Source of the DNA: a virus
Direction: 5' to 3' (one strand)
Length of the DNA stretch: 64,000 bases
Virus record (IMG/VR): IMGVR_UViG_3300014039_000016
Span: 8,829 to 72,828 of that record
Shown piece after piece: positions 8,552 to 56,508 of the stretch; the stretch's first letter is position 1, and the number at the start of each line of letters is the position of its first letter. The position numbers and the translations under genes were made by a program. The notes beneath the pieces are model-generated. The model made no database searches. It was not told the origin of the DNA and saw nothing but the letters and a program-made list of their open reading frames with translations.

Positions 8552-8556
8552 AAAAT

Positions 8557-8593
8557 GCGGGCAGATTTATATAATTTGCCCGTACTTATTTTT
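8557..8593 (+). terminator. Possible intrinsic terminator (gcgggca...tgcccgt followed by acttattttt)
   Basis: A 6-7 bp GC stem with a 13-nt loop and a T-run. Confidence 0.4.
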
Positions 8594-8629
8594 AATTAAT
8601 ATAGTAAGGATTACATCATTGCACTTAAT

Positions 8630-9052: not shown

Positions 9053-10657
9053 GTGACTGAAAGAACCAAGGAGATTAGAGAAAAAGGTTTTGATATGTTT
9101 AATAAAGAACCTTCAGCTCCGACAACCTTTTACAAAGATATGTTTTCTGAAGATAAATCAGATATCTATTTTAGTAGTGTAAAAGTAGGTCAAAAGAAAC
9201 TTGATGATGCAACTTTAACACTTAGTGATTTAAAGAAAGCGAATCCAAGATTAGCTGATAAAAATACTATTTTACAAGCAATAGATAGATATGATTTAAA
9301 ACAAATGAGAGAAATCTCTGATTTCTTTTATCGAACAAGTGGAATTTATTCCAGAATATTAAGATATATGGCATTTATGTATAGATATGATTATTTTATT
9401 ACTCCTTATGTTAATGACTCAAATATGAATAAAGAAAAACTGTTAAAAGGTTTTTATAATTCAATGTCAACTTTAGATAATTTTAAAGTTAAAAAAACAT
9501 TAGGCGAAATCGCATTAAAAGTATTAAGACATGGATGTTATTATGGATATAAAGTTGAACAAAGCGGCGGGGTTGTGTTACAAGAATTACCACCAAATTA
9601 TTGCAGAAGCAGATTCTCAGCTAATGGTAAGCCCGCAGTTGAATTTAATATGAAATTTTTTGATGATAATTTTAGAGACATTCAACAAAGATTACAGGTA
9701 TTAAATATATTCCCTAAAGAGTTTTCTAAGGGATATGTAAAATATAAAAAAGGTTTATTACCACCACAATTCTCAGGTGATACAAATGGTTGGTATTTAT
9801 TAGACCCAAAACAAACAGTTAGATTTACTGCGAATGGAGAAGAATATCCTGCTTTCATTTCTGTAATTCCTTTAATATTAGATTTAGATGAAGCACAAGG
9901 TCTTGATAGAAAGAAAACTTTACAAAGATTATTAAAGCTTGTCGTTCAAAAAATGCCTTTAGACAAGAATGGAGAAATGATTTTTGATATTGATGAAATG
10001 AGAGCTTTTCATAATAATGCAGTTATGATGTTAAAAAATGCTTTAGGCTTAGAGGTTTTAACAACACTTGCGGATGTTAGTGTAGAAGATATGACTGACA
10101 GTAACGCATCCGCGCAAACAGATGATTTACAAAGAGTTGAGCGTCAATTGTATAATGAGGCGGGCGTATCTCAAATGCAATTTAATACAGATGGTAATAT
10201 TGCATTAGAGAAATCTATCTTAAATGATGAAGCTACAATGTATAATATGCTTTTACAATTTGAAGATTTTTTAAATGAATTGTTAGAGCCTTATAATAAA
10301 AGTCCTAAGAAAGTTCAATATAAAGTACAATTATTAACTACAACTATTTACAATTACAAAGAACTTTCAAAAGCATATAAAGAACAAACTCAATTAGGTT
10401 ATTCTAAAATGTTGCCGCAAATAGCCTTAGGTCAAACTCAAAGTAGTATTTTAGCTACTGCTTATTTTGAGAATGAAGTTCTTGATTTGGTTAGTTTATT
10501 CATTCCGCCTATGCAAAGTAGTGTAATGAATGCAGATATGTTAGATAGAACATCTAAAAAAGTTGCAAGCGGAAACGAAAAAGAGGCGGGAAGACCTGAA
10601 AAAGAAGATGACCAAAAATCAACTAAAACTATACAGAACAAAGAAAGTATGAGCTAG
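9053..10657 (+). CDS. Portal protein. The assignment rests on position and size
   Basis: A 534-aa ORF directly after terL. It has a GTG start with a strong RBS (aaagggggcgaaag). Confidence 0.55.
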   Translation: MTERTKEIREKGFDMFNKEPSAPTTFYKDMFSEDKSDIYFSSVKVGQKKLDDATLTLSDLKKANPRLADKNTILQAIDRYDLKQMREISDFFYRTSGIYSRILRYMAFMYRYDYFITPYVNDSNMNKEKLLKGFYNSMSTLDNFKVKKTLGEIALKVLRHGCYYGYKVEQSGGVVLQELPPNYCRSRFSANGKPAVEFNMKFFDDNFRDIQQRLQVLNIFPKEFSKGYVKYKKGLLPPQFSGDTNGWYLLDPKQTVRFTANGEEYPAFISVIPLILDLDEAQGLDRKKTLQRLLKLVVQKMPLDKNGEMIFDIDEMRAFHNNAVMMLKNALGLEVLTTLADVSVEDMTDSNASAQTDDLQRVERQLYNEAGVSQMQFNTDGNIALEKSILNDEATMYNMLLQFEDFLNELLEPYNKSPKKVQYKVQLLTTTIYNYKELSKAYKEQTQLGYSKMLPQIALGQTQSSILATAYFENEVLDLVSLFIPPMQSSVMNADMLDRTSKKVASGNEKEAGRPEKEDDQKSTKTIQNKESMS

Positions 10658-19014: not shown

Positions 19015-19053
19015 AGCGGGGTCGGGTTATTATACTCGACCCCGCATTTTTTT
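19015..19053 (+). terminator. Rho-independent terminator (gcggggtcgggt / cgaccccgc followed by T7)
   Basis: A GC-rich stem followed by attttttt. Confidence 0.8.
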
Positions 19054-19072: not shown

Positions 19073-20335
19073 ATGCGTAATTATTCTACCCTTTTTACAG
19101 AGGATGAAGTAACATCAATAATAAAAGAATTAGATGATGTTTTTCAAACCGAAGATATTCAACAAATGGGTCAAAAAATTTTAACAAATTTAAAGTCTAT
19201 GCAAGATAAACTTAAAAATTTATTAAAAGATTTAGAGACTCTTGATTCTTTACAAGATGTTCAAAATCAAAAAAAGCAAATTGAAACAAAATGGAAAAAT
19301 GAAGGACATGAGAAAGAAATGACTTCAGCTAAATTGAAAACAGCATTAGGTTCACTCGCATTAAAAAAATCAGATATGAACCAATTTAAAAGTATACAAC
19401 AAGGAACTTCAGCAACATATGGAGCTGTAAATAAAACAATTTCAACGAAGAGAGCGCAAATATATGGAAAAGCCTATGTTTATGTTATGAAAATAAGAGA
19501 AATACTTACTGACCAAAAAGTAGATTACCATATTTATGCAAAAACAGATGGCGGCGATACGATTTTAGTAGAATTAGATGATTATGAAGTTTTATACGCA
19601 ATGAAAGAAAATGATGACAAAATCGGAGTGGCTTGTTATACTGCTTTAAATGCAATTAATGAAGCTAAAATGAAGAACAATGCACAACTTCGCGAAAAAC
19701 AATCAGGGTTAAATGAACAAGCAAAAAAAGGTTTTGACTTATTTAAACAAGCTGTAGATAAAAAAGTCTTAGTAGAAACCAAAGTAGAAGATGAAAACGG
19801 TAGAATGAAAACGATGTACCAAGTTGCGTATAATGGTAATAAAAAATGGTATAAAGATAAAGACCTGTCTGATGAAAAAGCAAAATTTAATAAGGGACAT
19901 TTCTTTGAAGCTTTTGATATAATTGCTTCAAAAATGACAAGAAATCAAACTTTTGGGTCGATAAAATATAATAATGTTATAAATAATTTGGAACATGATA
20001 ATGTAGATGCATGGGCTGGCGGAGATAATGCTGAAGATTTTTATTTACAACATTCTGTTAAAGCTATTATAGGACAATCTAGTGCTACTATTAAATCATA
20101 TAAATCTGTTCAGAATATCCTTAATATTCTTATAAATTTAATAGATGGTATAACTACAAAAGACTTTTCAAAAGAAGAAATTAAAAAACAATTAGAAAAG
20201 AATTTCTTTGATAAAAATAAATATGATGCTTTAGGAAAAACAACTACAGCAATGAATAAGGATGTAGAAAAAGCAGTAGATAGAATGTTAGAAATATTTA
20301 CACCACGACAAGTTGACAATTCAAAAAAAATATGA
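19073..20335 (+). CDS. Hypothetical Lys/Asn-rich protein of about 420 aa, lying between the tail tube gene and the chaperone gene
   Basis: A GGAGGTGAG RBS. The start was reassigned to the internal ATG. Confidence 0.5.
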   Translation: MRNYSTLFTEDEVTSIIKELDDVFQTEDIQQMGQKILTNLKSMQDKLKNLLKDLETLDSLQDVQNQKKQIETKWKNEGHEKEMTSAKLKTALGSLALKKSDMNQFKSIQQGTSATYGAVNKTISTKRAQIYGKAYVYVMKIREILTDQKVDYHIYAKTDGGDTILVELDDYEVLYAMKENDDKIGVACYTALNAINEAKMKNNAQLREKQSGLNEQAKKGFDLFKQAVDKKVLVETKVEDENGRMKTMYQVAYNGNKKWYKDKDLSDEKAKFNKGHFFEAFDIIASKMTRNQTFGSIKYNNVINNLEHDNVDAWAGGDNAEDFYLQHSVKAIIGQSSATIKSYKSVQNILNILINLIDGITTKDFSKEEIKKQLEKNFFDKNKYDALGKTTTAMNKDVEKAVDRMLEIFTPRQVDNSKKI

Positions 20336-20898: not shown

Positions 20899-20956
20899 AA
20901 TGTTCTATCGGTTCATAAGTTTCTCGAAATATTTTAGAAAAAGAAAATTATAATGG

Positions 20957-20990
20957 GAATGTGATATTCGTATCGCATTCCCATTTTTTA
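20957..20990 (+). terminator. Terminator or attenuator (gggaatgtgata / tatcgcattccc followed by T6)
   Basis: A 12-bp stem with one G-U pair, followed by attttttag. Confidence 0.65.
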
Positions 20991-21015: not shown

Positions 21016-24000
21016 ATGGCAGGAAGAAAAAGAATTGATATTGATATAGGTTTCAATACCGATACCTCAAGAGCAAAAGCTCAAATTCAAGATTTACAGA
21101 AACAGATAGTTAATTTATCAGTTGCCGCAAAACAGAATACAGCAACTAATACTTTATCTTCTGATATTTCCAAAGCTGTAATAGAAGCTAGTAAATTAAA
21201 TGGTATATTATCACAATCAATGACTTTCAAGGGAGATAATCTTGACTTATCTAAATTTGTTACAAACTTAAATAAGTCTGGTACTACTATTTCTCAAGTT
21301 CGTAAGAATTTAGAATCATTAGGTCCTCAAGGTCAAAAAGCATTTACATCTTTAGCGCAATCTATTATGTCTGCGGAAGTTCCTTTAAGACAGTCTGAAG
21401 GACTTTTAAAGAGTTTTTCTACTACTCTTACAAATAGTGCGAAATGGACTGTAGCTTCAGGTGCCGTTCATCAAGTACAGACAGAATTTAGTAAAGCTTT
21501 TGAATATAGTAGAAAGCTTGATAAATCATTAAATGAAATTAGAATAGTATCTGGAGAAAGTTCAGATAATATGGCTAAATTTGCTAAACAAGCAAATGAA
21601 TCTGCCAAAGCTTTAAATACAACAACAACTGCATATACAAATGCGGCATTAATCTTCTATCAGCAAGGTCTTGATACTGCCGCAGTTAAAGAGCGTACTG
21701 ATGCAGTTACAAAGATGGCAAGTGTTACAGGAGAGACTGCTGCAGATGTATCTTCTTACATGACTGCTATTTGGAATAACTTTAATGATGGTTCAAAAAG
21801 CGTAGAATATTTTGCAGATGTTCTTACTGCATTAGGTGCGGCAACTGCATCTAGTACAGATGAAATCGCAGAAGGTCTTGAAAAGTTTGCTTCTATTGGT
21901 AATACTGTAGGTTTATCATATGAATATGCTACTTCTGCTCTTGCAACTGTTGTTGCAGAAACTCGTCAGTCCGCAGATACTGTAGGTACTGCATTTAAAA
22001 CATTATTCGCGCGTATCCAGGACTTAGAGTTAGGCAATACATTAGATGATGGAACAACATTAGGTCAGTATTCTAAGGCTCTTGAAGCTATTGGGGTAAA
22101 TATCAAAGATTCAAAGGGCGAAATTCGTGATATGGACGATATCTTAGACGATATGGGTTCTAAATGGAAGACTATCTCTAAGGATACTCAGATTGCGGTT
22201 GCACAAGCAGTTGCAGGTACTCGTCAGTATAGTCAATTAATTGCCTTAATGGATAAGTGGGATGTTTTCCAAGAGAACTTAAATACAGCTAAAGGTGCGG
22301 AAGGTTCTTTACAACAGCAAGCTGATATTTATGCAGAATCATGGGATGCCGCATCTAAGAAAATAAAAACTTCATTAGAAGAAATTTATTCAAATCTTAT
22401 TGATAGTAAAACTATGGTTGATTTAATGAAATTCCTTAGTAAAGCTATTGAAGGTTTTGGTCATTTTGTTGATTCTGTTGGTGGAGTTAGAACTGCTTTT
22501 ATTTTATTAGCAAATACTATAATTTCTAATCAAGGTCCTCAAATAAGCAAATATGTTGATAAAGTTGTTGATAACTTTAAAATCAAATTTGGTATTATGG
22601 GCAAAGAGATTGAGGCAACTAGAGAGAAAGCTCAAAAAGAATATAAAGCTATGATTGCAGGAATGGATATAAAGACTCCAGAAGACCGTGCACAAGTAGC
22701 TAATATGAAAGCAAATTATGATATTGAAAATGCTATTTTTGAGAAGAAAAAAGAGTTAGCCAAAATAAATGCAAATTTAACTGAATCTCAAATAGAACAA
22801 ATAGCCAATGAAAAAGCTCAATTAAAACAATTAACAGAAGAAGCTGAAGTTACAGCTCAGATTTATGATACTAAAAATAAAGCTAGACATGCTGCGTCTG
22901 ACGATATTTCATCTATTGGTCAGAGATTTAAAAGCACTAATTTATCTTTAGACAATGTAGACAGTAAAAAAATTCGTGAAAAAATTACTTCAGAAGTAAA
23001 TAAAGCTTATTATGCAAAAAATTTACCTGAGAATACTTTACAAGAGCTTTATGCAAAAAAAGTATTATTAGGTGAAGCAGATGAATTACCTAGTGAATAT
23101 TATCTTAGTCAAAACTATAAAGGTATAGATAAGACTAGAGCAAGAAATAGCCGCTATTGGGATATGATACATCAAGTTGACCCTGCAGATGAGAATGGTA
23201 ATTATAGATTCTCAGAAAAAGAACGAAGACCAACAAATAGTGCAAATATTAATAAAGCGGTATATAAATCATACCTTGAAAAATATCGGGATACTAAAAA
23301 GTTAGCTGAAGGTATGGTTAATCCTAATTTTGATGAAGAAGCACAGGAAGCTCTTCAGAATCAATTTTTTGAAGACTACAATGCTGCAGAATTAGCATAT
23401 GCTGGAAATGAAACTAATATTTCTACTAGTAATAAAGTTTTAAATTTATTTGATATGAATAAAGTTAAATCAGGTAAGTTTTCTTTAAAAGATATGCAAG
23501 AAACATTATCTACTCTTTATAATTCTTCAAATGAAAATAAGCGAATGATTGATGACCTTATGAAGTTAAATGAATATAAAAAAGAAGGTAATATTAAAAA
23601 ACTTATTACTGGTCAGAATGTAGCAGGTGTAGATAAAACAGACTATGCTCATATGCTACAGATGATTGAAAATAATAGAACGAGTTATCTTACAAATCGT
23701 GATACTCTTAGCGGTAATCTCAGAGGCGTTTTACAAAATTATGGTTTTGAAGCTACAGATGTTACAAAGATATCTGATGCGCTTGATGAACAACATAAAG
23801 CAATAGAGGCTTCAGATAAGTCTTTAGCAGATTATGTAAAATCTTTATTAGATGTTCAAAATCATTCTAAATCAGTAGTTGACTCTATTAATGAGATGGG
23901 ATTTTCTGTAGGTAGTATCGGCGAGAATTTTGCTAATGGTGCAAATGCTATGAGTAATTTCGCGATGACTGCTAATAGTGCTTATTCTGTTTTTGAATCT

Positions 24001-27000
24001 ATAGAAGAATTATTCTCTGGAGATTTAAAATTAAGTATTGGTTCTATAATTGGACTTTTTACTCAATTAGGTTTTAGTGTGTCTGGTTTTCTTCAAACAA
24101 AGAAATCATTTAATCAATTTTCAAATATGCTTTCAGGAACTATTGGAAATAGAGCCACTTTAAAAGACCAAAAAGCATTAGAAGATAGAAAATATAATTT
24201 AGCAGAAACAAAAGATAATATTGATGCTTCATTTAAAGAATATCTTGAAAAGAAAAGTACATTTGGAAAAGATAAAGGCAAACAAAAGAGATTATCAGAT
24301 TTTACAAGTCTTATAGGTGAAAGTCAAACAATTGATTTGCCAGACAATTTATCTAAGATGAGTGTTGATGAAAGAAAAGATTGGCTTTCTAAAATAAGTG
24401 GCGCGAAAATTGATTCACAATATAGAACTAGAGATTCTAGACTTACAGGAATTACAAAGGGTCTTATTACAAATGATGATGAATGGGCAAACTTTACTGA
24501 AAGTTTGAAGCAGAGAAAAGCTGCTGCGCAAGAAGAACAAGATATTGTAGCAACAACTCAAGCAGTTGAAGGTCGTGGAATTCAAATCGCAAGTAAAGTT
24601 TCAAAGGCTATGGGTGCGATTGGTATCGCGGTTCAGGTTGCAACAACAGCGTATGCCGCTTATAATCTTATTCATAAAGCAGTTGTAGCTAATTTACAAA
24701 AAGAAGCAGAAGAAAGTCTTAGAGTAGCACAAAATACAACAGAAAAGACAAAACAATATAAAGAAGAATCAGATAAAGTTAGTGAATTAAAGAAAGCTTA
24801 TGATGAATTATATAATAAATATAATGATGGAGAATTATCAGCTTCTGCATTAAAGAGACAAAGTTATGACCTTTGTATGCAATATGGTGAAGAAGAGCTT
24901 GCAGTAAAAGCATTAAGTGGAGAGTATAAGAGTCTTGAAGAGGCTATGAAGTCTATTGAAAGTAAAAAGACAGAGAAAACACTTAATTCTGCAAAACAAG
25001 AACAGAAAAACTATGAAGTAGCTCTTAGAGACCAATTAAGTGCAAGTGCCGAAGAAGACGCGGGTAGAAGAGATTTTGTTAATGGAACTGAGACTATTGA
25101 CTTAAGAGGTATGGTTGCAAGAAATTCTAAAGAAAAGAATTTAGCTAGTCAACTTCAAGAATTAGGAGTTCAATTCCTTACAAATGATAAGATTAGTCTT
25201 CAAAGTTTAGCTACTGCAATTAAGACAGATGCAGAAGCAGTTCAATCTGTATTGAATGATTCTGATACTACTGCGGCAAAACAATTAAGACAATATTTAT
25301 CAAGTGCAAAAGACCAGATTGATGGCTTAACAGAATCTATAGATACTGCGCACGAAGCACAAAAGACTATGATTGTAGATGCTCAAAACTTTGATGCTAT
25401 TGATTCTATTGAAGACTATACTACAACATGGCGGAATATGGTTCATGAAGCATTGAGTAAAGGTGTTTATGATTCTATTGAAGATGCTTCAAAATGGGCA
25501 AACTCATATATGTCTGCTATTGATAGTATAAAAGAATATGCTCAAACTGCAACAGTTGCTGATACTATTATGTCTAACACTTCTAAAGATATATTTAAAG
25601 ATATTCAAAATCAGAAGAATGAAATTGATTATACAAGTATTGAAGAGTGGGCAGCAGAGAAGTATGGCGCAGAAGTTCATTATATGAATGTAAAAGACCT
25701 TACTGATGAATTTGAACAAGAAAAAGCAGCAAAGAAAACTGGATTAGAATTAAATAGCTTACAATACTATGAATCTATGACGAAAGCCTTAAATAATTAT
25801 TCTACTTATGAGCAAAGTTTCTTTAGTGATAATTTTTCTCAGTTGCTTAGTGAAGCAATGGAGAAAAACAACAATAATACAGAAAAAGCTTTAGCTTCAT
25901 TAGCAGAAAAGCTTCCTAATGTATTTGAAGGAAGTGCAGAAAAAGGTGAAGCTGATTATGCACAAACTTTAATTGATGGTTTAATTACTGATAAAACAGA
26001 ATTAACAGATAAACAAAAGAAACAAGTTCTTAATACTCTTGATTTTTCAGGTGTTACATCTGAAGGCGTATCAGTTGATGAAAAAACTTTAAATAATATG
26101 GATTATTCTTCTCAAGCTACTCTTATGGCAGCCTTTTATGGCGAGAAGTTAAAATTGATTGAAGAGACTGGTGATGCCGCAAGAGAAGAAGCTCAGTTAG
26201 AAGCTGAGACATATAAGAAAACATATGAATCTCAAATAAATGATTATAAAGATGCTCAAAAAGAGTTAGAATTATTATCAGAAGACTCAGATGCTAATTT
26301 CACTCAAGAGGATATTACTAAATTAGTTGATAAATTTAATGGCAATGATTTAAGTGGTCTTAATGATGATACTATTAAGAACTTAAAAGAGGTTATGGCT
26401 AGTCAAGGTTATGGAAGTGATAATAATGATGTTATAGACTTCTTTAAAAAGCTTAGTAATAAGAAATATGCAGACCAATTAGAGAAACTTGATGATTTAG
26501 TTAAAGACCTTACTGTTGATTCAGATGATTGGAATAAAGTTGTTAAAGCTGGGGAGAAAGCACAAGAGGCTAATAGTAGTGTTATTGATGATATTCAAGC
26601 TGGATATAAGACTTTAACATCTGCCATGAAGGATTATAATGCTAATGGTTACTTTACTATGGATAATCTTCAAGCTATTCTTGAACTTGAACCTAAATAT
26701 CTTTCAGCATTAGAGTGGGATGGAAGTCAATTTAAGTTAAACACTGCTGACTTAAAAGAGATGACTAAAGCTAAACTTGCGGATATGGCAGTAAGTCAAG
26801 CAAGAATTACTGTAGCTAAGGTTGAATCTATTTTATCAAGTGATAATGTAGTTAATGCGGCTATGGAACTAGAGATGACTCAAAAGTTGACTACATCAAC
26901 AATGAGTTATGCAGAGACTTTAATTGCAGAAGCTAGAGGTTTAGCTGCTGCAAATACAGAGCTTCAAAATAATGCCGCAGCAATGCAACAAGTTACCATG

Positions 27001-30000
27001 TACATTGATGCGCAGGAAAATGCAATTGCCGCAATAGGTAATGTTTATGATAATATAGACGCGCATTTTGATAAGATTATGGGTAGTTCTGCTTCATCTT
27101 CAAAGAAGAAATATTTTGAAGATGAGTTCGATAGATATTGGGAGTTTAAGAAGGCTATTGATGAAGTTGCTCATGCAATGGAGCGCCTTGAAGATGAACA
27201 AGATAATTTATATGGACAAGAATTAATTGATAATCTTAATCAAGTAAATGATTTATTAGTAACTCAAAAAGCTAACTATGAAGCTTTATATGAAGCACAA
27301 AAAGTTGAAGCAGAAGAGTTAAGAAGTTCATTAAGTGCATATGGTGCATTATTTGATGAAGAAGGTCGTCTCACAAACTACGCAGATATTACGACATCTA
27401 TGTTTGCTCAGTATGGTAATGTTGATGATTCAGAAACATATGAAGAATTTAAAAAGTATCTTGAGAGATATGATACTCTTTATTATTCTGAAATGGTTGA
27501 TACTACGGATAAGATTGTAGAAGAATCTAAGAAGATACTTGAGAATAATCTTAAGATTTGGGAAACAGATATTCAGATTAATTTAGATTTAAAACAAGCT
27601 GAAAGAGACTGGAATGATTTCTTAAAAGAGATTAACAGAAACTTTAAATCAACATTTAGTGACGCAGGACAAGAGATTGAGTATGCTTTAAAGAAAGCTC
27701 AAACATTTAACTTAGATGATGGAACTCTTGCGAGTGATATTCAGAAAGTTGAAAATATTAATTATGAGATAAATCAATTACAAAATGGCGGAACTAGTGA
27801 TTTATTTAGCTCTTTATCAGAAGCAGAAAATGCTTTAAAAGAAGCTAATAAGACACTTCAAGATGATGCTGAGGAATTATTCTCAACATACGAAGAAGGT
27901 TGGAACGCTTATTTAGAATATATTGATGATGTAGGAACTCATCTTGATAATATCAATAAAAAATATGAAGAATTAAATGAAGAACTTGAACATCAAGCTA
28001 ATTTAATTAGTCTTTTATACGGAGATACAGCTTATGATAAACTTGCTAAATTATATGACACTCAACAAAAGAGTAATTTAGCTCAATTAAAATCTTTAAG
28101 ACAGCAGACAGACTTTTATCAAGCACAATATGAAAAAGCTGTTCAATTAGATGGCGAAGATAGTAAGTCCGCAGAGAAGTGGCTTGAAAAGAAGAGACAG
28201 GCTATGCAGGACCTTCGTTCAGAAGAAGAGACTTACATTAAGACTATTCAAAGTAAATATAATAATACTATTGATAGTATTATTCAAAAAGCTAGAATGG
28301 CTACAAATGGCGGAGTTGATACTGATTGGGCTAGAACTATGTATGATTTAACAAAGACTAAATCAGAAGGTAACTATGATGATGTTGAAAGAGTATATCA
28401 ATTAACTTCATTACAGTCTAAGTGGAATAAATTAATTGCGGATACCACAGGAACTAAGAATCAAGAGAAATTAAAGAAGATTATGGATGAGCAATTAGCT
28501 AATCTTGAAAAGAAAGCTACTTTAACAGAATATGATATTGGTCTCGCGGAAAAGGCACTCGCAGTAGAGCAAGCTAGAATAGCACTTGAGCAAGCTCAAA
28601 ACTCAAAAGATAGTATGAAACTTACTAGAAATGCAGAAGGTAATTGGTCTTATCAATATGTAGCAGATGAAGATAATGTTGCGGAAAAACAACAAGATTT
28701 ATTAGATGCTATTAATGATAAGTATGAATATGTTAAATCCGCAAACCAACAAGCTTTAGAAGATTTACTCCAATATGAAGAAGACTTCTGGAATAAGTAT
28801 GCGGAGATTATGAAAGATGTTTCTTTATCTGATGAAGAAAGACAAAGTAGAATAGCTCAACTTTATGATATGTATTATGGAGAAGAAGGTATTCTTACTC
28901 AAGCTTATCAAGATTCTGCGCAAACACAACAAGATTTAAACCTTGTTACAGCAGAGCAGTTATGGGCGATTTATGAATCAGACCAAGAGAAGTATGCTAC
29001 CATGACTGCCGCAGAACAAGAATTAATAGATGGTTTAAAGAACGGAACTATTAAATCTTATGAAGATATACAAGAAGCTGGTCAAAGAGTTAATGATGAA
29101 AGTCTTGACTATTGGAATACAACTGCACAAGCTATGGCAGACGCATGGAACGCAGATGACGGAATGAGTATTAAATCTCAAGTTAATGAAGCATTAAAAG
29201 ATTGCTCAACCGCATTAGCTGATTATGGCGCAGATGTAGATGTAGGATGCGCAGCCGCAGGTGAAGATTTTACAGATGTAGGTAATGCAATAGATGATGT
29301 ATCTAATGCTATTGACGACTTAGATGGAACAACTGAAGATTATATTGATAATGCAGAAAAATTAATTGATGATTATATAGATAGTTTAAAAGAGTTAGAA
29401 TCTCAATGGAAAGAAGTTAAGTCTATTGTTGAACAAAATATTGAAACTATGAAGAAGTATGAGCTAGCTGCAAAGAGTGCTTCTACTGCTTATAGTCCAG
29501 CTGCTGCAACACCATCAAGTGGAGGTAGCGGAGGTGGAAGTGCAACTGATATTGCAGATAATAATCCTCCGGAAGAGACAGTCCATTATTATTCTGTAGA
29601 TACTGCACCAGATGGAGATGGCTTAGTAGTAACAGTATATGAAAGAACAGGAAATAGTGAAAAAGCAATAGGACGAGATGGGGAAGAACCAAAAGATTAT
29701 AAAGACCATAGAATCAGTTCTGTTTGGGAAGCTAGAGATTATATAAATCAAGTTTTATCCGATAATGGATATGATGAAGAATTAGACCCTAATGTAAATG
29801 TCCAAACAAGTGGTTATAAATATTATTTAGATAATGCACGAGTAAATACATATTCTTTTGATACTGGCGGTTATACAGGAGAATGGGATAATTCAGGCAG
29901 ACTTGCGATATTACATCAAAAAGAATTAGTTTTAAACAAGGATGATACAGAAAACATTCTTAATGCAGTTGAATTTGTTCGTGGAATTGCAAGCTCTATA

Positions 30001-30225
30001 GGAGCTTCATTATTATCTCAACTTGCGGGAATGACAAATGCTACTTCTAGTATTCGTCCTGTTAGTGCCGATTACTTATCTTCTAGTGTTAGTAATGCTT
30101 CTAATAATAATGTTTACAATGTTACTGCGGAATTCCCTAATGCAGAAAGTGTTCAAGATATTAGAGAAGCTTTATTAAGTTTACCTAATTTAGTTAGCCA
30201 AAAAGTTAATGAAAAAAATATTTAA
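21016..30225 (+). CDS. Tail tape measure protein, 3069 aa
   Basis: The N-terminal region matches the conserved TMP core (…AAVKERTDAVTKMASVTGE…FKTLFARIQDLELG…AVAQAVAGTRQYSQLIAL). It has a long coiled-coil and a Gly-rich hinge near the C-terminus. Confidence 0.9.
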   Translation: MAGRKRIDIDIGFNTDTSRAKAQIQDLQKQIVNLSVAAKQNTATNTLSSDISKAVIEASKLNGILSQSMTFKGDNLDLSKFVTNLNKSGTTISQVRKNLESLGPQGQKAFTSLAQSIMSAEVPLRQSEGLLKSFSTTLTNSAKWTVASGAVHQVQTEFSKAFEYSRKLDKSLNEIRIVSGESSDNMAKFAKQANESAKALNTTTTAYTNAALIFYQQGLDTAAVKERTDAVTKMASVTGETAADVSSYMTAIWNNFNDGSKSVEYFADVLTALGAATASSTDEIAEGLEKFASIGNTVGLSYEYATSALATVVAETRQSADTVGTAFKTLFARIQDLELGNTLDDGTTLGQYSKALEAIGVNIKDSKGEIRDMDDILDDMGSKWKTISKDTQIAVAQAVAGTRQYSQLIALMDKWDVFQENLNTAKGAEGSLQQQADIYAESWDAASKKIKTSLEEIYSNLIDSKTMVDLMKFLSKAIEGFGHFVDSVGGVRTAFILLANTIISNQGPQISKYVDKVVDNFKIKFGIMGKEIEATREKAQKEYKAMIAGMDIKTPEDRAQVANMKANYDIENAIFEKKKELAKINANLTESQIEQIANEKAQLKQLTEEAEVTAQIYDTKNKARHAASDDISSIGQRFKSTNLSLDNVDSKKIREKITSEVNKAYYAKNLPENTLQELYAKKVLLGEADELPSEYYLSQNYKGIDKTRARNSRYWDMIHQVDPADENGNYRFSEKERRPTNSANINKAVYKSYLEKYRDTKKLAEGMVNPNFDEEAQEALQNQFFEDYNAAELAYAGNETNISTSNKVLNLFDMNKVKSGKFSLKDMQETLSTLYNSSNENKRMIDDLMKLNEYKKEGNIKKLITGQNVAGVDKTDYAHMLQMIENNRTSYLTNRDTLSGNLRGVLQNYGFEATDVTKISDALDEQHKAIEASDKSLADYVKSLLDVQNHSKSVVDSINEMGFSVGSIGENFANGANAMSNFAMTANSAYSVFESIEELFSGDLKLSIGSIIGLFTQLGFSVSGFLQTKKSFNQFSNMLSGTIGNRATLKDQKALEDRKYNLAETKDNIDASFKEYLEKKSTFGKDKGKQKRLSDFTSLIGESQTIDLPDNLSKMSVDERKDWLSKISGAKIDSQYRTRDSRLTGITKGLITNDDEWANFTESLKQRKAAAQEEQDIVATTQAVEGRGIQIASKVSKAMGAIGIAVQVATTAYAAYNLIHKAVVANLQKEAEESLRVAQNTTEKTKQYKEESDKVSELKKAYDELYNKYNDGELSASALKRQSYDLCMQYGEEELAVKALSGEYKSLEEAMKSIESKKTEKTLNSAKQEQKNYEVALRDQLSASAEEDAGRRDFVNGTETIDLRGMVARNSKEKNLASQLQELGVQFLTNDKISLQSLATAIKTDAEAVQSVLNDSDTTAAKQLRQYLSSAKDQIDGLTESIDTAHEAQKTMIVDAQNFDAIDSIEDYTTTWRNMVHEALSKGVYDSIEDASKWANSYMSAIDSIKEYAQTATVADTIMSNTSKDIFKDIQNQKNEIDYTSIEEWAAEKYGAEVHYMNVKDLTDEFEQEKAAKKTGLELNSLQYYESMTKALNNYSTYEQSFFSDNFSQLLSEAMEKNNNNTEKALASLAEKLPNVFEGSAEKGEADYAQTLIDGLITDKTELTDKQKKQVLNTLDFSGVTSEGVSVDEKTLNNMDYSSQATLMAAFYGEKLKLIEETGDAAREEAQLEAETYKKTYESQINDYKDAQKELELLSEDSDANFTQEDITKLVDKFNGNDLSGLNDDTIKNLKEVMASQGYGSDNNDVIDFFKKLSNKKYADQLEKLDDLVKDLTVDSDDWNKVVKAGEKAQEANSSVIDDIQAGYKTLTSAMKDYNANGYFTMDNLQAILELEPKYLSALEWDGSQFKLNTADLKEMTKAKLADMAVSQARITVAKVESILSSDNVVNAAMELEMTQKLTTSTMSYAETLIAEARGLAAANTELQNNAAAMQQVTMYIDAQENAIAAIGNVYDNIDAHFDKIMGSSASSSKKKYFEDEFDRYWEFKKAIDEVAHAMERLEDEQDNLYGQELIDNLNQVNDLLVTQKANYEALYEAQKVEAEELRSSLSAYGALFDEEGRLTNYADITTSMFAQYGNVDDSETYEEFKKYLERYDTLYYSEMVDTTDKIVEESKKILENNLKIWETDIQINLDLKQAERDWNDFLKEINRNFKSTFSDAGQEIEYALKKAQTFNLDDGTLASDIQKVENINYEINQLQNGGTSDLFSSLSEAENALKEANKTLQDDAEELFSTYEEGWNAYLEYIDDVGTHLDNINKKYEELNEELEHQANLISLLYGDTAYDKLAKLYDTQQKSNLAQLKSLRQQTDFYQAQYEKAVQLDGEDSKSAEKWLEKKRQAMQDLRSEEETYIKTIQSKYNNTIDSIIQKARMATNGGVDTDWARTMYDLTKTKSEGNYDDVERVYQLTSLQSKWNKLIADTTGTKNQEKLKKIMDEQLANLEKKATLTEYDIGLAEKALAVEQARIALEQAQNSKDSMKLTRNAEGNWSYQYVADEDNVAEKQQDLLDAINDKYEYVKSANQQALEDLLQYEEDFWNKYAEIMKDVSLSDEERQSRIAQLYDMYYGEEGILTQAYQDSAQTQQDLNLVTAEQLWAIYESDQEKYATMTAAEQELIDGLKNGTIKSYEDIQEAGQRVNDESLDYWNTTAQAMADAWNADDGMSIKSQVNEALKDCSTALADYGADVDVGCAAAGEDFTDVGNAIDDVSNAIDDLDGTTEDYIDNAEKLIDDYIDSLKELESQWKEVKSIVEQNIETMKKYELAAKSASTAYSPAAATPSSGGSGGGSATDIADNNPPEETVHYYSVDTAPDGDGLVVTVYERTGNSEKAIGRDGEEPKDYKDHRISSVWEARDYINQVLSDNGYDEELDPNVNVQTSGYKYYLDNARVNTYSFDTGGYTGEWDNSGRLAILHQKELVLNKDDTENILNAVEFVRGIASSIGASLLSQLAGMTNATSSIRPVSADYLSSSVSNASNNNVYNVTAEFPNAESVQDIREALLSLPNLVSQKVNEKNI

Positions 30226-30230
30226 AAAAT

Positions 30231-30259
30231 GGGGCAGGAAACTGCCCCAATATTTTTTT
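30231..30259 (+). terminator. Rho-independent terminator (ggggcag gaaa ctgcccc followed by T7)
   Basis: Direct reading. Confidence 0.8.
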
Positions 30260-30329: not shown

Positions 30330-33300
30330 ATGTCAAATAAGAATAGTCAAGATATTTCTTCAGCTTTATTAGCGGCATTTGAAACTTATAGTAAAAGCAC
30401 TGCCGCATCAGTAAAAGCATCTGTTACTATTGAATGTACAATTACTAGTATTGTAGATAGAGCTGCGGGCATCTATACTGTTAAATATCAAAATAATATA
30501 TTTAATGTATATTCTAATAATGCTGACTACTCTATTAAAGATATTGTCTATGTTTTAGTTCCAGAAAATGATTTCTCAAAAAAGAAAATGATTGTAGGAC
30601 TAATAAAACATAATACGGATGAATCAGCGTCTTCCGCGGAAGAAGATTCTACAGCTAGTCAATATCTTGTAATTGCAGACAATGTTTTAGATATTAACTC
30701 AAAAGAAGTTATAAACCTTTGTTCTTTTCATACAGAAACTAAAGATGTTTTTTCAAGTAATGTGGATTCCGCGGACCAGGTTTTAATGCCAAAATATTTA
30801 AAACATTATAAAACTTATGCTTTATCTATGAAAGTAAAAACTTCATTAATAGATAGTCAAAGAGTTGGCGGAGATTATGGTATTACATTACAGCTTCCAT
30901 TCTTCAGATATAGTGAAGATAATGATAAAATGATTAATGATAAAACTTTAACATTTGATATTCATAAGATGTTAGGTAATCCATATAATTATCAAGTTTG
31001 GACACAGCAAACTTATTATTTTACATTAGAAGAAAATGATGAAGAATTTTATGATAGCCGCAGAAGTCCTATTATTTCTGCTTTTGTAAGAGACTTTAAT
31101 CAAGATGAAAATATTGATACAAATGATATTTTTATTAAAGATGTTCAATTCTTAGTTGTTCAAGCTTTAACAGAAACAGAGATGCAAGGTAATTATTTAA
31201 AAATAAAATCTGATACTGGAGAATACTTTTTAAAGAATTATTTTGAAACAAAGAAAACTTTAAAACCAATTTTAAAGATAAAAGGACAAGAGAAGAATAT
31301 CAATGGATATGATTGCTATTGGTTTGTAAAAGATGCTTCAGTTAATGCAACTAACAATCCTAACTATTGTACAAAAGGCGGACTTGGTTGGAAATGTCTT
31401 AATGAGAAAACTAAAGTTAATACAAATGACAATGGAGATACTTCTTATCAATATGTTACAAATATATACAGTTATCAAGTAAAGATAGAAGATGTTAAAA
31501 CATCATTGATTTATAAGTGTGTATTAACAAAAGATACAGAAAGAATTTCTGGTGAATTAGAAATTGTAAATCTTAATTCAGATATTAAGTTTAGTTTATA
31601 TTCAACAACAGGAAGTAATAATTTTGTAAAAAATATAGGTAAAGTAAGTCTTGCGGCAGACCTTTATTATCCAGGCATTACAGATAATGAAAATTCAACA
31701 AGTAATTTTAAATATTACTGGGATAGATACGCAAAAGACGGAACTTATTTAGATAGTAATTTCTTAACTTTTAGTGATATAAATATTAAAGAAAACGGAC
31801 ATTACATTACTAAAGGTACTTATCCAACTTCAAAAATGCAGGATAGTAATTTAATTACTTGTACCGTATTTGAAGAAAAACAGCGCGCGGATGGTAGCAT
31901 AGAGAGCATTAACCTTGGTAGTGCGGATTTAGCGGTTTCCGCAATAGATACTTATGAATATGTAACCTACTTGTATAATGCAACTAGATTATATAATTAT
32001 GATTCAGATGGAGATTCTCCTTTTTCAGAATATTATGATAAAGATACAACAAACTTAAATGAAATTGAACCAATTACATTTAAAATATATAAAGCAAATG
32101 GAAATGAATTAACAGAAACAGAATATTTAGCTGTTAATATCATTTGGAGAATACCAAAGAAATCTTTAATTAATATTAATCCTATTTTAGTTAGTGAGGA
32201 AGATGATAATTATTATTATGTTCGTGGTGAGAGAAGTCTTCCTTATACTATTGATAGTACATACAATCCTTCAAAAAGTAATAATGAGATTACTCTATAT
32301 ACTATTTTTGCAGGCGTGGAGATGTTAAATAATACATCGTTTACTTTTGTTAAAGATGGCGGAAATGGCACTAATGGTACGAACTATAGTGCAGAAATCA
32401 TTATTGATGGATATGCATATGGACAGAAAAATCCAACTACTAATGGAGTATATAAACTTTGTTATGTTTATTTTGCAGATAGCGCTAAATGGATGCTATA
32501 TGATATGCAGAATAATCAGCTAATTGATGATACAACATTAAGGACTCTTGATGTAAGAGTATTTAGTAAAGGCGAAGTAATTACCGATGATACACAATAT
32601 AGTGTAAAATGGAGCATGTTTGATGATAAAGCAACTAATCCTTGTTTTACTTTTGATGATACAAAGAATCAGTTAATTCCATCAAAAGCATTTGACCCCT
32701 CGGAAGTATATTGTAATATTCTTCAAGCAGAAGTGACAGTTACAGATACAAGTGTTGCTAATAAAAACTGGATAATTTATGCTTATTATCCTATTGAAAT
32801 TACTTATTGTGCAAAAGAGTCTGATATTATTTATACAGATGAAAATGGTAATAAGAGATGCGCAGTTCCAGTGCTTAATGGCGGATATTCAGAAGTATTA
32901 TTTGCTTCAGATGGTACAAATCCAAAATGGGATAATAGTTCTAATTTTACTATTGTAGATAACTTATATAGTATAGATAGTTCAAATGTCTATGACTATG
33001 AATGGGAAACATCAGAGAACTTAAACATTTCAGAATATAGAAGTGCAGATTTACCAGAGAATCAGAAAGTCATTGAACCTACTTCAAAATTTGATAGTGG
33101 TATTAGTAAAAACTATGTAAAAACAACACTTACTCTTGATTCGGAAACTAAGGAGAAATTAACAAAAACAAAAGAAGAATATACTAAAGAAGCAGAAGAC
33201 TATCAAACTCAAATTACTGCTTTAACAACTAATTATTCAACTTTAAAAAATGTTTTAAGCTATTTTCAATATAAACCTTGGTTAAATGTTTTAACAGAAG

Positions 33301-35765
33301 TAAAAGATTATATGTCTCTTAATAATGATATGGTTAGAACTCTGAAAGAAAGTGGAAGTCTTTTAAGTGATGTTAGTAAATATTATCAACAGCATACTGA
33401 AATTGGTGGAATTGTAACTATTGATTTTGTTACTTATAATAATTATATTAATAGAGATATTACAAACGCATTATTAGGTAAGACTTTACCAGTTTCTTTT
33501 TCAACTAGAAAGATTGATTTAACAGATAGACAGCTTGCTAGATTAAAAGAAAAACTTGATATTGCTATTTATAATGTATTTGTAAATTATGTTAATATAT
33601 ATAATGATAAGATAGAAGTAGTTCTTCAATATAAGAATCAATTAATCGCGGAAGAAGGCGGTGCTAGGAAGTACGAAAGCAAAAGAGAAAAACTCTATAG
33701 CCTTTGCTCTGGAGATTCTACTAATGCAATTGCGGAAGGGGTATATCCTGTTTCCCGCATGATATCTACTTTTGATAAGATTAAAACAGCTTACAAAAAT
33801 TCTTACGATAATTTAGTCGCATTACAAAATCATTTCACAGAAGTAAGTTCTTATTCTGAATACAGTGATATTTTTGAAAATATGAAAAAGACACTGTTAG
33901 ATTATGGAAAATTATCAGATTCAGAAGAGAATATGGAAATTAAAGAAAATTTAACACTTGATTATAATAATAAGTTAAGTTTATTATATACAGATAAAGT
34001 AGCAGCCATCGTTCAAGCTAATGCCTATGATGTATTAATTGGTGTTGAGATGAATAGAATTATTCATATTAAACCAATTATTATGCTGTATAATAGATAT
34101 GCTATGTCTAATATTAATGGTTGGGATGGTAATAAGATATATACGGGTGATGAAGACAGCTTCTTATTAGCTCCGCAAGTAGGTGCAGGTAAGAAAGACA
34201 GCAATAATAAATTCACTGGTATGGTTATGGGACTTAGAAATTTGAATAAAACATCTGCCGCGGAAGATACTCAGGTAGGTCTTTTCGGATATAGCGGTGG
34301 CGCGCAATCACTTTTCTTAAATGCAGAAGATGGTTCTGCAATATTTGGTCTTCATAAAAGAGGACAAATTATTATTGACCCATCAACATCACAAGCCTTG
34401 TTATATAGTGGTAATTTTTATAAAGAATTTGGTAAAGATGGAAAGCCAACTGGTTATTCTTCTCAGAATAGGGATAATCAAGGTATGCAGATTGATTTAA
34501 CAACACCTAAAATTGAGTTTGGTTCTGGTAATTTCATAGTTACTCCTGAAGGACATGTAACTGCAAAAGGTGGAGGCTCAATCGCAGGTTGGCAAATTGG
34601 AGACACAACTTTAACAAGTTCTAATGGGAAAATTACTTTAGATTCTAAAGATACTAAAATCTGGGGTGGAGAAAGACATTCTACTCTTGATAATACTACT
34701 GATGGATTTTATTTAGGTCCGGATGGTATTAGTATAGGTTCTTGTTTTAGAGTAAATCAAGATACTTTATTATTAGGAAGGTTAAGGAGTGATAGCCGAC
34801 ATTGGGAATTAAAATATGACGCAGAAAATAGCTATCTAGGATACGGTACAAAAGGAAGTAGTAATTCTGTTTATGTAGGAACAGATGAGATTGCTTTAGG
34901 TCGAAAATTTAGTGTTAATAATGAAGGTGAATTAACTGCAACATCAGGACACATAGGCGGATGGGAAATTGGAGATAAGAGTTTATCTTGTGATAGTAGA
35001 AGTGCTTCTATGTATAGCGGCAGTCATACCACTTTAGATTCAACATCAGGCGGATTTTATTTAAGTTCAGATGGTTTTAGTCTTGGTAAACATTTTAAAG
35101 TTGATGATGATGGCTTATTGACTGCTTCTGATATAAGTGTATCCGGAAGAATAGAAGCGTCTAGTGGTAGTATTGGTAGCTTTGATATTTCTGATGGACA
35201 TATCAGTACTAATGGTAAGACATGGAGCGGAGAAGATAATGATAGAGATGGAGTTTATATTGGTTCAGAAGGTATCTATTTAGGTGCTAATTTCTGGGTT
35301 GATATAGAAGGTAACTTACATGCAAGTAATGCAACTGTAACAGGTAATGTTACTGCTAATAGCATTGATTTTGATACAGCTTCTATCTCGGGAACTTTAT
35401 CTGCCGGACACATTAACTGTCAAGGTGTCGTAGATGCCGCGACTATTTACTGTAGTGCTGCAAATGTTACGGGAACTCTTACTGCGGGTCAAATAGATTG
35501 TCAGGGCGTCATTGATGCTGGAACAATAAGCGCTGATAAAATAACAACTGGCTCATTAAGTGTTGAACGTATTGATACTCATCAGGTTACGGGGGCTTCT
35601 GGTTCTCCTGCATGGATACCTGCTTGGATTTGGGGCGGTTCATCATGGGCTCAATATTATGTTTTAGTATGCTCAGGAACTATTCCAGGTGGCGGAGGTA
35701 CTGCACCATCTTCATTAGATTCTTCAAGTTCTGATGACGGTGATGGTGGAGGCCATAGTTTCTAA
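30330..35765 (+). CDS. Giant tail-tip or baseplate protein (1811 aa), positioned like a distal tail protein (Dit), with a C-terminal triple G-x-I-G-G-W-x-I-G-D repeat and TGTLTAGxIDCQGV repeats
   Basis: An AAAGGAGG RBS, its position right after the TMP gene, and the internal repeats. Confidence 0.55.
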   Translation: MSNKNSQDISSALLAAFETYSKSTAASVKASVTIECTITSIVDRAAGIYTVKYQNNIFNVYSNNADYSIKDIVYVLVPENDFSKKKMIVGLIKHNTDESASSAEEDSTASQYLVIADNVLDINSKEVINLCSFHTETKDVFSSNVDSADQVLMPKYLKHYKTYALSMKVKTSLIDSQRVGGDYGITLQLPFFRYSEDNDKMINDKTLTFDIHKMLGNPYNYQVWTQQTYYFTLEENDEEFYDSRRSPIISAFVRDFNQDENIDTNDIFIKDVQFLVVQALTETEMQGNYLKIKSDTGEYFLKNYFETKKTLKPILKIKGQEKNINGYDCYWFVKDASVNATNNPNYCTKGGLGWKCLNEKTKVNTNDNGDTSYQYVTNIYSYQVKIEDVKTSLIYKCVLTKDTERISGELEIVNLNSDIKFSLYSTTGSNNFVKNIGKVSLAADLYYPGITDNENSTSNFKYYWDRYAKDGTYLDSNFLTFSDINIKENGHYITKGTYPTSKMQDSNLITCTVFEEKQRADGSIESINLGSADLAVSAIDTYEYVTYLYNATRLYNYDSDGDSPFSEYYDKDTTNLNEIEPITFKIYKANGNELTETEYLAVNIIWRIPKKSLININPILVSEEDDNYYYVRGERSLPYTIDSTYNPSKSNNEITLYTIFAGVEMLNNTSFTFVKDGGNGTNGTNYSAEIIIDGYAYGQKNPTTNGVYKLCYVYFADSAKWMLYDMQNNQLIDDTTLRTLDVRVFSKGEVITDDTQYSVKWSMFDDKATNPCFTFDDTKNQLIPSKAFDPSEVYCNILQAEVTVTDTSVANKNWIIYAYYPIEITYCAKESDIIYTDENGNKRCAVPVLNGGYSEVLFASDGTNPKWDNSSNFTIVDNLYSIDSSNVYDYEWETSENLNISEYRSADLPENQKVIEPTSKFDSGISKNYVKTTLTLDSETKEKLTKTKEEYTKEAEDYQTQITALTTNYSTLKNVLSYFQYKPWLNVLTEVKDYMSLNNDMVRTLKESGSLLSDVSKYYQQHTEIGGIVTIDFVTYNNYINRDITNALLGKTLPVSFSTRKIDLTDRQLARLKEKLDIAIYNVFVNYVNIYNDKIEVVLQYKNQLIAEEGGARKYESKREKLYSLCSGDSTNAIAEGVYPVSRMISTFDKIKTAYKNSYDNLVALQNHFTEVSSYSEYSDIFENMKKTLLDYGKLSDSEENMEIKENLTLDYNNKLSLLYTDKVAAIVQANAYDVLIGVEMNRIIHIKPIIMLYNRYAMSNINGWDGNKIYTGDEDSFLLAPQVGAGKKDSNNKFTGMVMGLRNLNKTSAAEDTQVGLFGYSGGAQSLFLNAEDGSAIFGLHKRGQIIIDPSTSQALLYSGNFYKEFGKDGKPTGYSSQNRDNQGMQIDLTTPKIEFGSGNFIVTPEGHVTAKGGGSIAGWQIGDTTLTSSNGKITLDSKDTKIWGGERHSTLDNTTDGFYLGPDGISIGSCFRVNQDTLLLGRLRSDSRHWELKYDAENSYLGYGTKGSSNSVYVGTDEIALGRKFSVNNEGELTATSGHIGGWEIGDKSLSCDSRSASMYSGSHTTLDSTSGGFYLSSDGFSLGKHFKVDDDGLLTASDISVSGRIEASSGSIGSFDISDGHISTNGKTWSGEDNDRDGVYIGSEGIYLGANFWVDIEGNLHASNATVTGNVTANSIDFDTASISGTLSAGHINCQGVVDAATIYCSAANVTGTLTAGQIDCQGVIDAGTISADKITTGSLSVERIDTHQVTGASGSPAWIPAWIWGGSSWAQYYVLVCSGTIPGGGGTAPSSLDSSSSDDGDGGGHSF

Positions 35766-35795: not shown

Positions 35796-35975
35796 ATGGA
35801 AAAACTAAGATTAAAATTAATAGAAGATATCAATGCAAGCGGACTTCCGCTTGAAGCGATTGTTTTTGTAGTTAGAGATGTATATAGGGACGCGCAAGAG
35901 ACATATCAGAAATATCAAATTGCACAACAATCTCAAACTACAGAAGAAAAGAAAGAAGATATAGACCACCAGTAA
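35796..35975 (+). CDS. Small hypothetical protein of 59 aa, absent from the ORF track
   Basis: aaaaggagataaaaggataATG. A terminator hairpin overlaps its stop codon. Confidence 0.4.
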   Translation: MEKLRLKLIEDINASGLPLEAIVFVVRDVYRDAQETYQKYQIAQQSQTTEEKKEDIDHQ

Positions 35976-35994
35976 TGGTGGTCTTATTTTTTTG
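35964..35994 (+). terminator. Terminator (agaccacca gtaa tggtggtct followed by T8)
   Basis: Direct reading. Confidence 0.7.
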
Positions 35995-56489: not shown

Positions 56490-56508
56490 ATGATTCTAAT
56501 GTAGAAAA

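Follow-up and report, generated by a model that had tools for sequence, protein, structure and literature searches.

The stretch of DNA analysed here (64,000 nucleotides, positions 8,829 to 72,828 of IMG/VR virus record IMGVR_UViG_3300014039_000016; hereafter, the window) carries an open reading frame (ORF) of 3069 codons on the plus strand (21016..30225; the end coordinate includes the stop codon), which very probably encodes a TP901-family tape measure protein (TMP) of an SPbeta-like phage. The ORF starts with ATG, is uninterrupted, and is preceded by an AAGGAG ribosome-binding site located ~8 nt 5′ of the start codon. Its placement is that seen in tail modules, with genes encoding a tail tube protein and a YomO-like protein upstream and tail-type ORFs downstream (Table 1). 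The G+C content is ~32.5% in the TMP gene and 31% in the window; at such a composition, ~8.6% of random codons would be stops, and the chance of 3069 stop-free codons is ~1e-120 given the base composition of the region. The longest open stretch in the remaining five frames over the same 9.2 kb is 82 codons.

Table 1. Features of the window that are discussed in the text, with window coordinates.
Feature	Position	Strand	Evidence or remark
Sigma-factor-like ORF, 360 aa	3335-4417		phrog_5767, E=3e-50; just upstream of packaging genes
Large terminase, apparently split with HNH endonuclease ORFs	5731-9001		
Portal gene	9053-10657		
Tail tube (major tail) protein, 321 aa	17724..18689	+	YomU_Tube homology; phrog_2729
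YomO-like protein, 175 aa	20371..20898	+	Directly 5′ of the TMP gene; PF27287 YomO (weak) on the 99%-identical gene of contig L001; phrog_30570
Terminator-like hairpin followed by T-run	20952..20985	+	A short distance 5′ of the TMP gene; found by terminator scan and by reading the nucleotides directly
TMP gene, 3069 aa plus stop	21016..30225	+	ORF list, translation, TMP family matches, dN/dS, identical protein on independent assemblies
TP901-type TMP core domain, aa 158-493	21487..22494	+	TIGR01760, PF10145; within the conserved N-terminal ~600 aa
Poorly conserved TMP region, aa ~620-1200	22876..24615	+	Coverage falls to 0-8 of 104 distant homologues (BLASTP)
Second hydrophobic segment of the TMP, aa 1201-1220	24616..24675	+	Hydropathy scan
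Conserved helical module defining the family, TMP aa 2000-2800	27013..29415	+	549 clusters at E<=1e-30; AlphaFold2 model
Invariant beta-hairpin, TMP aa 2533-2549 (SMKLTRNAEGNWSYQYV)	28612..28662	+	DSSP strands in the model; family alignment
Gly/Ser/Pro-rich linker and lineage-variable insert, TMP aa ~2825-2945	29488..29850	+	Not alignable across the family
Conserved TMP C-terminus, aa 2947-3069 (FDTGGYTGEW...LHQKELVLN..DT.NIL)	29854..30222	+	Invariant columns; alignment with TMPs of cultured phages
Terminator-like hairpin	30230..30249	+	5 nt past the TMP stop codon; terminator scan
1811-aa protein, presumed distal tail, tip, or fibre protein (by position)	30330..35765	+	3′ of the TMP gene

An earlier note on this window, made from the nucleotide sequence without database searches, had proposed that this ORF encodes a TMP, and matches in three collections of protein families bear out this identity. 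PF10145 (PhageMin_Tail; Pfam) matched aa 193-401 (E=5.3e-28; 98.7 bits, cut-off 33.2) and TIGR01760 (tape_meas_TP901; NCBIfam) matched aa 158-493 (E=1.2e-38; 133 bits, cut-off 28.8). Ten PHROG families matched the first 500-600 aa, nine of which are annotated as tail length tape measure protein; the profiles of the two best matches are ~2600 positions long. PF10145 was also the only Pfam domain in all 120 homologues listed as the best matches to the TMP in a collection of 5.8 billion proteins, bar one stray match to PF03670.

Anatomy of the tape measure protein

Coverage by 104 distant homologues, which are collinear with the TMP from end to end (BLASTP), divided the protein into five zones. 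The N-terminal ~600 aa and the C-terminus are conserved; between them, conservation is poor at aa ~620-1200, moderate at aa 1200-2000, and strong at aa 2000-2800. The region of the core domain presented the densest invariant columns of the family alignment and was covered by ~100 of the 104 distant homologues; the poorly conserved region was still found to be under purifying selection (dN/dS 0.076). Proline makes up 0.72% of the protein and is almost absent from aa 800-2800; glycine is scarce too, and the 3069 aa include 18 His and 3 Cys. A Kyte-Doolittle scan identified hydrophobic segments at aa 485-504, 1004-1027, and 1201-1220, the strongest of which (aa 1004-1027, nt 24025-24096; peak of 1.54) is located inside the poorly conserved region.

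Structural models obtained with AlphaFold2 covered aa 1990-3069, about a third of the TMP. The model of aa 1990-2800 (811 aa), for which a 14-sequence family alignment was used as input, is 82% helix with a mean pLDDT of 75.6; a Foldseek search of this model against the PDB returned long helices of the SMC and dynein type only (E>0.01) and no fold match. The sole strand pair in this modelled helical module is a beta-hairpin with five invariant columns (R2538, G2542, W2544, Y2546, and Q2547). The corresponding motif, G.W.YQ[YF] (KLTRxxxGNWSYQYV), was present in 207 of the 237 family members with a length of at least 2200 aa, at a median distance of 527 aa from the C-terminus, and was absent from the TMPs of SPbeta, Enterococcus phage VRE9_3, and Bacillus phage vB_BanS-Tsamsa (Tsamsa); no cultured carrier was found.

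The insert of ~100 aa located between the linker and the GGYTG motif represents a lineage-specific cassette, which ranges from 60 to 190 aa across the family (relatives P0017-P0116). Confidence in the AlphaFold2 model of the C-terminal 285 aa was low (pLDDT 54); a small alpha/beta unit was predicted within the insert at aa 2855-2916 (pLDDT 73-79 for the unit alone). A Foldseek search of the C-terminal model against the PDB returned nothing below E=0.2, and the alpha/beta unit had neither a fold match nor a Pfam match. An SH3-like wall-binding domain was suspected in the variable insert of three relatives (P0054, P0095, and P0108) and received no support from Pfam. Over 43-54 aa, the conserved C-terminus was 50-59% identical to those of SPbeta YomI, Tsamsa gp226, and ORF130 of Lactococcus phage 949; with the VRE9_3 TMP, identity was 38% over 129 aa.

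Search for enzymatic modules within the tape measure protein

No obvious lysozyme or peptidase domain had been noticed in the translated sequence, and database searches agreed with this reading. At E<=0.1, PF10145 was the only Pfam match of the TMP, with no lysozyme or peptidase domain; the same search identified two such domains in SPbeta YomI, SLT at aa 1425-1533 and Peptidase_M23 at aa 1579-1674, and nothing but PF10145 in the VRE9_3 TMP. NCBIfam likewise gave no such domain. Searches against all PDB chains with the TMP (phmmer) and with a 27-sequence family profile (hmmsearch) returned only coiled-coil proteins (e.g., dystrophin, SMC, and M protein) and a tape measure protein (8vjh_Q); no peptidoglycan hydrolase was matched, as the sole chain named after M23 (8tzk_E; E=0.066) aligned to a helical region only. 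Because the virion RNA polymerase in gp96 of Thermus phage P23-45 can be recognised by its DFDGD motif only, the 3069 aa were also scanned for motifs of the DxDxD type. No D.D.D (DxDxD), HExxH, or HxH motif was found, and a cryptic RNA polymerase or metallopeptidase like those of P23-45 was rejected on these grounds.

It seems improbable, therefore, that the TMP is a composite protein of which only a part acts as ruler and the rest (e.g., aa 620-1200 or the C-terminal insert) forms a cryptic functional module, with a tail clearly shorter than 430 nm. Such proteins have precedents in P23-45 gp96, whose RNA polymerase escapes sequence searches, and in YomI with its SLT and M23 domains; however, tail length per residue of the whole protein is still 0.14-0.16 nm in SPbeta and P23-45, with the embedded domains counted in. 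Room for a module of this kind might be seen in aa 620-1200, which are unconserved in sequence and lie outside the modelled part, as well as in the small alpha/beta unit predicted at aa 2855-2916, but all Pfam, NCBIfam, and PHROG matches of the TMP were to TMP families, PDB sequence and profile matches were to coiled coils only, and Foldseek gave no significant match for either model. The lack of the three motifs, the few His and Cys residues, and the scarcity of proline and glycine throughout the protein also argue against it. A cryptic module could sit only in aa 1-1990, especially in the poorly conserved region, and the composition there argues against its presence.

Predicted tail type

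The tail protein genes around the TMP gene suggest that the SPbeta-like phage of this window is probably siphoviral, with a predicted non-contractile tail. A single 321-aa tube protein had been recognised in the earlier note, and this protein proved to be a YomU_Tube homologue; it is 93% identical to the product of a gene that carries PF27173 (YomU_Tube) on a near-identical contig from the Hadza gut (L001), and tblastn matches to the tube gene were found in VRE9_3 (1e-55), 949 (ORF136; 4e-24), and Tsamsa (gp230; 2e-14). The neighbouring genes of L001, which are 93-99.7% identical to genes of the window, carry precomputed Pfam assignments to YonD_N, YonB, YomW, YomV_2nd, YomU_Tube, and YomO. 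All Pfam assignments named after SPbeta were taken from these near-identical L001 genes; the local copy of Pfam lacks the newer models. With these assignments, the structural module follows the SPbeta order (families YonB, YomW, YomV, and YomU), and it is collinear with that of Enterococcus phage VRE9_3, with an identical order of PHROG families and 24-39% identity. Matches to several genes of the module, the tube gene among them, were also found in Tsamsa and 949.

Family searches agreed with the claim that no sheath gene is present: from 3.3 to 55 kb, no ORF of at least 100 aa gave a match to a sheath family, and no sheath-sized ORF was found ahead of the tube gene; several ORFs of the module are without annotation, so this negative result covers family matches only. 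A contractile-tailed phage or a tailocin, with a sheath gene too divergent to detect, would be compatible with these unannotated ORFs, and Enterococcus phages EF1 and EF5, which carry a homologous module, are labelled "Myoviridae" in a table without images (PMC6435515). The tube, head, and connector genes, however, match families named after SPbeta, a siphovirus verified by electron microscopy, and the tube has homologues in Tsamsa and 949, two phages imaged as siphoviruses; together with the lack of a sheath family match and of anything sheath-sized before the tube gene, this makes a contractile tail very improbable. For a tailocin, the window holds too much of a full phage, including genes for terminase, portal, DNA polymerase III alpha subunit, anaerobic ribonucleotide reductase (NrdD), and dUTPase.

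Integrity of the gene

Tandem Repeats Finder and a direct-repeat search gave only short, weak, low-identity matches in the TMP gene, which contains no tandem or long direct repeats; therefore, there is nothing in it to collapse or expand during assembly. The exact 3069-aa protein is recorded on six contigs (JGI, Logan, and ENA; the longest is 151 kb), and many independent assemblies contain near variants (3067-3110 aa; 86-97% identical from end to end), among them two 156-kb contigs from the Hadza gut. Comparison with a 97%-identical orthologue yielded a dN/dS of 0.074 overall and of 0.02-0.17 in each of five TMP segments, the poorly conserved one included. The TMP gene is real and is translated along its whole length. 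An assembly artefact (i.e., the collapsed repeat considered in the earlier note, an expanded repeat, or a chimeric join) might be suspected where the window is probably a short-read metagenome assembly, as the occurrence of the identical protein on contigs from the Hadza gut and other metagenomes indicates, and where long helical proteins can be repetitive, but it is effectively refuted because the identical protein is present in several independent metagenome assemblies, with repeats absent, distant homologues collinear from end to end at a similar total length, and dN/dS low in every segment.

Length of the tape measure protein within its family

The 120 best homologues of the TMP ranged from 2647 to 3233 aa (median of 2955 aa), and 21 of these 120 were at least 3069 aa long; the longest contigs carrying TMP homologues were 140-172 kb. 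In addition, aa 2000-2800 alone were searched with HMMER against 1.84 billion representatives clustered at 50% identity, which yielded 1308 proteins with E<=0.001, of which 1011 had E<=1e-10 and 549 had E<=1e-30. Among the best 150 of these matches, 133 were at least 2200 aa long; their median was 2841 aa, their interquartile range spanned 2736-2918 aa, and the longest had 3233 aa. The TMP, with its 3069 aa, stands at the 91st percentile. As judged from these protein sequences, a large lineage, most of it uncultured, has conserved the length of its TMP. A megablast search of the TMP gene against 50,697 phage records returned no match; therefore, the gene has no close cultured relative among these records.

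The description of this TMP as exceptionally long thus holds for the figure of 3069 aa, which was confirmed, and not for its rarity, since the TMPs of 949, Tsamsa, P23-45, and phAss-1 are equally long or longer and the protein is at the 91st percentile of its own family. Similarly, placement of the phage among the longest-tailed siphoviruses agrees with the long tail that is predicted, yet such a tail would be ordinary among the large siphoviruses of an already known Firmicutes-infecting lineage.

One tentative reading, which we regard as possible but rather doubtful, is that the module of aa 2000-2800 and its invariant hairpin mark a distinct and very widespread lineage (at least 549 clusters from gut and rumen-type metagenomes) with tails of ~400-480 nm. 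The hairpin might then represent a functional site (e.g., a processing point, a contact with tube or hub, or a membrane-insertion element), and the tightly kept TMP length might reflect selection for a very long reach through the thick envelopes or capsules of anaerobic Firmicutes.

Predicted tail length and proposed mechanism

Four phages with measured tails were used to calibrate tail length per TMP residue, three of which (SPbeta, Tsamsa, and 949) are related phages that share the module. The ratios are 0.140 nm per residue for SPbeta (tail of 320 nm and TMP of 2285 aa; PMC8270828), 0.141 for Tsamsa (440 nm and 3123 aa; PMC3903500), 0.153 for 949 (500 nm and 3276 aa; PMC3888941), and 0.160 for P23-45 (800 nm and 5002 aa; bioRxiv 10.1101/2022.12.01.518664). 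Multiplied by these four factors, 3069 aa correspond to 430, 432, 468, and 491 nm, respectively. At 0.14-0.16 nm per residue, the phage would thus have a flexible, non-contractile tail of 430-490 nm, a length that rests on measurements of other phages. The earlier estimate of ~450 nm, which assumed 0.15 nm per residue, falls within this range and is likewise a prediction.

Several points weigh against the reading as a whole. Both the length and the morphology of the tail are predictions from sequence for this phage. Fold-back or processing of parts of the TMP would shorten the tail, and the TMP of Tsamsa migrates as two bands (280 and 100 kDa; PMC3903500). Modelling covered aa 1990-3069 only, the monomer model packs helices against each other and cannot show an extended state, and two parts of the protein (aa 620-1200 and the alpha/beta unit at aa 2855-2916) are without an assigned role. 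Among the neighbouring genes, a canonical G/GT chaperone pair with a -1 frameshift was not recognised 5′ of the TMP gene, where there is no overlapping ORF, and the genes downstream of the TMP gene were not recognised as Dit or Tal by any profile library.

By analogy with lambda gpH, TP901-1, and related phages, from which we infer the ruler action, the oligomeric state, and the membrane role of this protein, several copies of the mostly alpha-helical, proline-poor TMP would form an extended core that is anchored in the tail-tip complex through the conserved C-terminus. Hexameric rings of the 321-aa YomU-type tube protein would then polymerise around this core up to the N-terminal end of the TMP, so that the length of the TMP would set the length of the tail. 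During infection, the TMP would be expelled, and its hydrophobic segments would probably help to form a conduit through the envelope.

The tail length of a siphovirus bears on receptor reach and on envelope crossing, and few cultured phages have very long tails. TMPs of ~3000 aa, and hence predicted tails of ~400-500 nm, are common in an uncultured lineage of SPbeta-like gut phages rather than a curiosity of a few isolates, and the hundreds of homologous TMPs, with lengths of 2300-3230 aa, could provide a natural data set for a large-scale test of the ruler model. For the gene described here, the outcome is mainly a confident annotation; precedents are known both in culture and in the gut-virome literature, and no new mechanism is raised.

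Comparison with named phages

The TMP of Tsamsa, gp226, is of nearly equal length (3123 aa) and shares the PhageMin_Tail domain and the C-terminal GGYTG...LH.KE.VLN motif (56% identity over 43 aa); in addition, the tube, capsid, and connector genes of this phage are homologous to those of the window and are found in the same order, and its genome is of comparable size (169 kb, versus ~150 kb). However, the alignment of the two TMPs is limited to the domain core and the C-terminal motif, PhageMin_Tail is located ~500 aa further into the Tsamsa protein, and gp226 contains neither the GNWSYQY hairpin motif nor the conserved module of aa 2000-2800. Tsamsa also has an aerobic Bacillus host, whereas the gut phage of the window is uncultured and encodes an anaerobic ribonucleotide reductase.

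ORF130 of Lactococcus phage 949 (3276 aa) is longer than the TMP described here and shares with it a TP901-type domain and, at 50% identity over 54 aa, the motif at the C-terminus; the tube genes of the two phages are homologous as well (30% identity; 4e-24). In contrast, the middle 2400 aa of ORF130 show no detectable similarity, and its proline content is higher (1.5%). Phage 949 is a dairy Lactococcus phage with a genome of 115 kb; phage PhiL47, which is grouped with 949, has a tail of 480 nm.

SPbeta is the reference for the structural module, given that the neighbouring genes match its YonB, YomW, YomV, YomU, and YomO families. YomI (CwlP) is 25% identical to the TMP over 510 aa in the N-terminal domain and 59% identical over 46 aa in the C-terminal motif, and stem-loops are annotated on both sides of yomI, just as hairpins flank the TMP gene here. 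However, YomI is 784 aa shorter and contains the SLT and Peptidase_M23 domains, neither of which is present in the 3069-aa TMP.

By synteny, the closest cultured relatives are Enterococcus phages VRE9_1-4, EF1, EF5, and H1, which carry the same PHROG families in the same order from capsid to TMP. The VRE9_3 tube protein is 39% identical to that of the window, and the VRE9_3 TMP, which is also without a lytic domain, aligns in three blocks that include part of the helical module; on the other hand, it is 396 aa shorter (2673 aa) and does not contain the GNWSYQY hairpin motif. We found no paper describing morphology or electron microscopy of the VRE9, EF1, EF5, and H1 phages.

TMPs of 3149, 3150, and 3209 aa have been described for the phAss-1 group of human gut virome phages (PMC10607447, 2023). 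Like the phage of the window, these are uncultured human gut phages (~133-136 kb) with very long TMPs and with DNA polymerase III alpha, a signature gene of the phAss-1 group, and N-terminal identity is 32% over aa 47-508. TAG is recoded in the phAss-1 group, whereas the window reads cleanly in the standard bacterial code. Thermus phages P23-45 and P74-26 (gp96 of 5002 aa; tails of 800-900 nm) illustrate the ruler principle in an extremely long protein, and their tails mark the upper limit known. Their gp96 has no sequence relationship with the TMP and, unlike the 3069-aa protein, which has no DxDxD or HExxH motif, it embeds an RNA polymerase and a metallopeptidase.

Phage genome and host

Genes on the opposite strand of the window (55833-63979) encode RuvC, dUTPase, NrdD with an ATP-cone, and the DNA polymerase III alpha subunit. 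Because NrdD is present, an anaerobic host is indicated, and the TMP belongs to an uncultured human gut phage of ~150 kb that very likely infects an anaerobe. A prophage scan with one genome per species identified only four contigs of metagenome-assembled genomes (L004-L007), which are labelled Bacteroidales, Oscillospiraceae, Bacteroides, and Clostridium. These are probably phage contigs that were mis-binned, rather than evidence for a host; as their taxonomic labels are mutually inconsistent, the host cannot be assigned from them.

Neighbouring genes

The genes of the window are arranged in the order of a sigma-factor-like ORF, large terminase, portal, a head and connector block, tube, three small or unknown ORFs, TMP, and ~22 kb of large ORFs of the tail, fibre, or adhesin type. 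The last ~40 aa encoded by the sigma-factor-like ORF match the endonuclease VII family. The two apparent terminase pieces (5731-6354 and 7400-8551) are accompanied by HNH endonuclease ORFs located between them (6885-7403) and after them (8630-9001), and ~530 nt without a long ORF (6355-6884) follow the first piece. A search of the split terminase region for a group I or II intron returned nothing at the Rfam gathering thresholds, with only a sub-threshold match to the L20 leader (E=0.019).

A 384-aa ORF (19052/19181..20335) located between the tube and YomO-like genes had no match in Pfam, PHROG, or NCBIfam. The corresponding DNA (19077-20206) had no blastn match in the Hadza contig L001, despite 94-97% DNA identity on both flanks, and the two proteins encoded at this position are of equal length and 28% identical. 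This ORF is an allelic replacement, at what looks like a diversification hot spot of the tail module. The 175-aa YomO-like protein encoded next to the TMP gene is, by its position, a candidate tail assembly chaperone; the same PHROG family, phrog_30570, occupies this neighbourhood in VRE9_3.

The large tail-type ORFs 3′ of the TMP gene include matches to phrog_1887 (tail protein) and Phage_tail_C. The first of these ORFs, encoding 1811 aa, had no match in Pfam, PHROG, or NCBIfam and sits where Dit- and Tal-type genes lie in SPbeta, Tsamsa, and 949, suggesting a presumed role as a distal tail, tip, or fibre protein. A G-x-I-G-(G/S)-(W/F)-x-I-x-D motif recurs in its C-terminal third, which closes with a Gly/Ser-rich tail. 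Over the final ~650 nt of this ORF, the window departs from the near-identical contig L001, as would be expected of a receptor-binding tip. Besides the two hairpins that flank the TMP gene, further strong terminator-like hairpins with T-runs were found at 19016-19045 and 35963-35984, which bracket the TMP gene and the neighbouring large genes; a total of 17 terminator-like hairpins were found, versus 5.4 expected from shuffled sequences.

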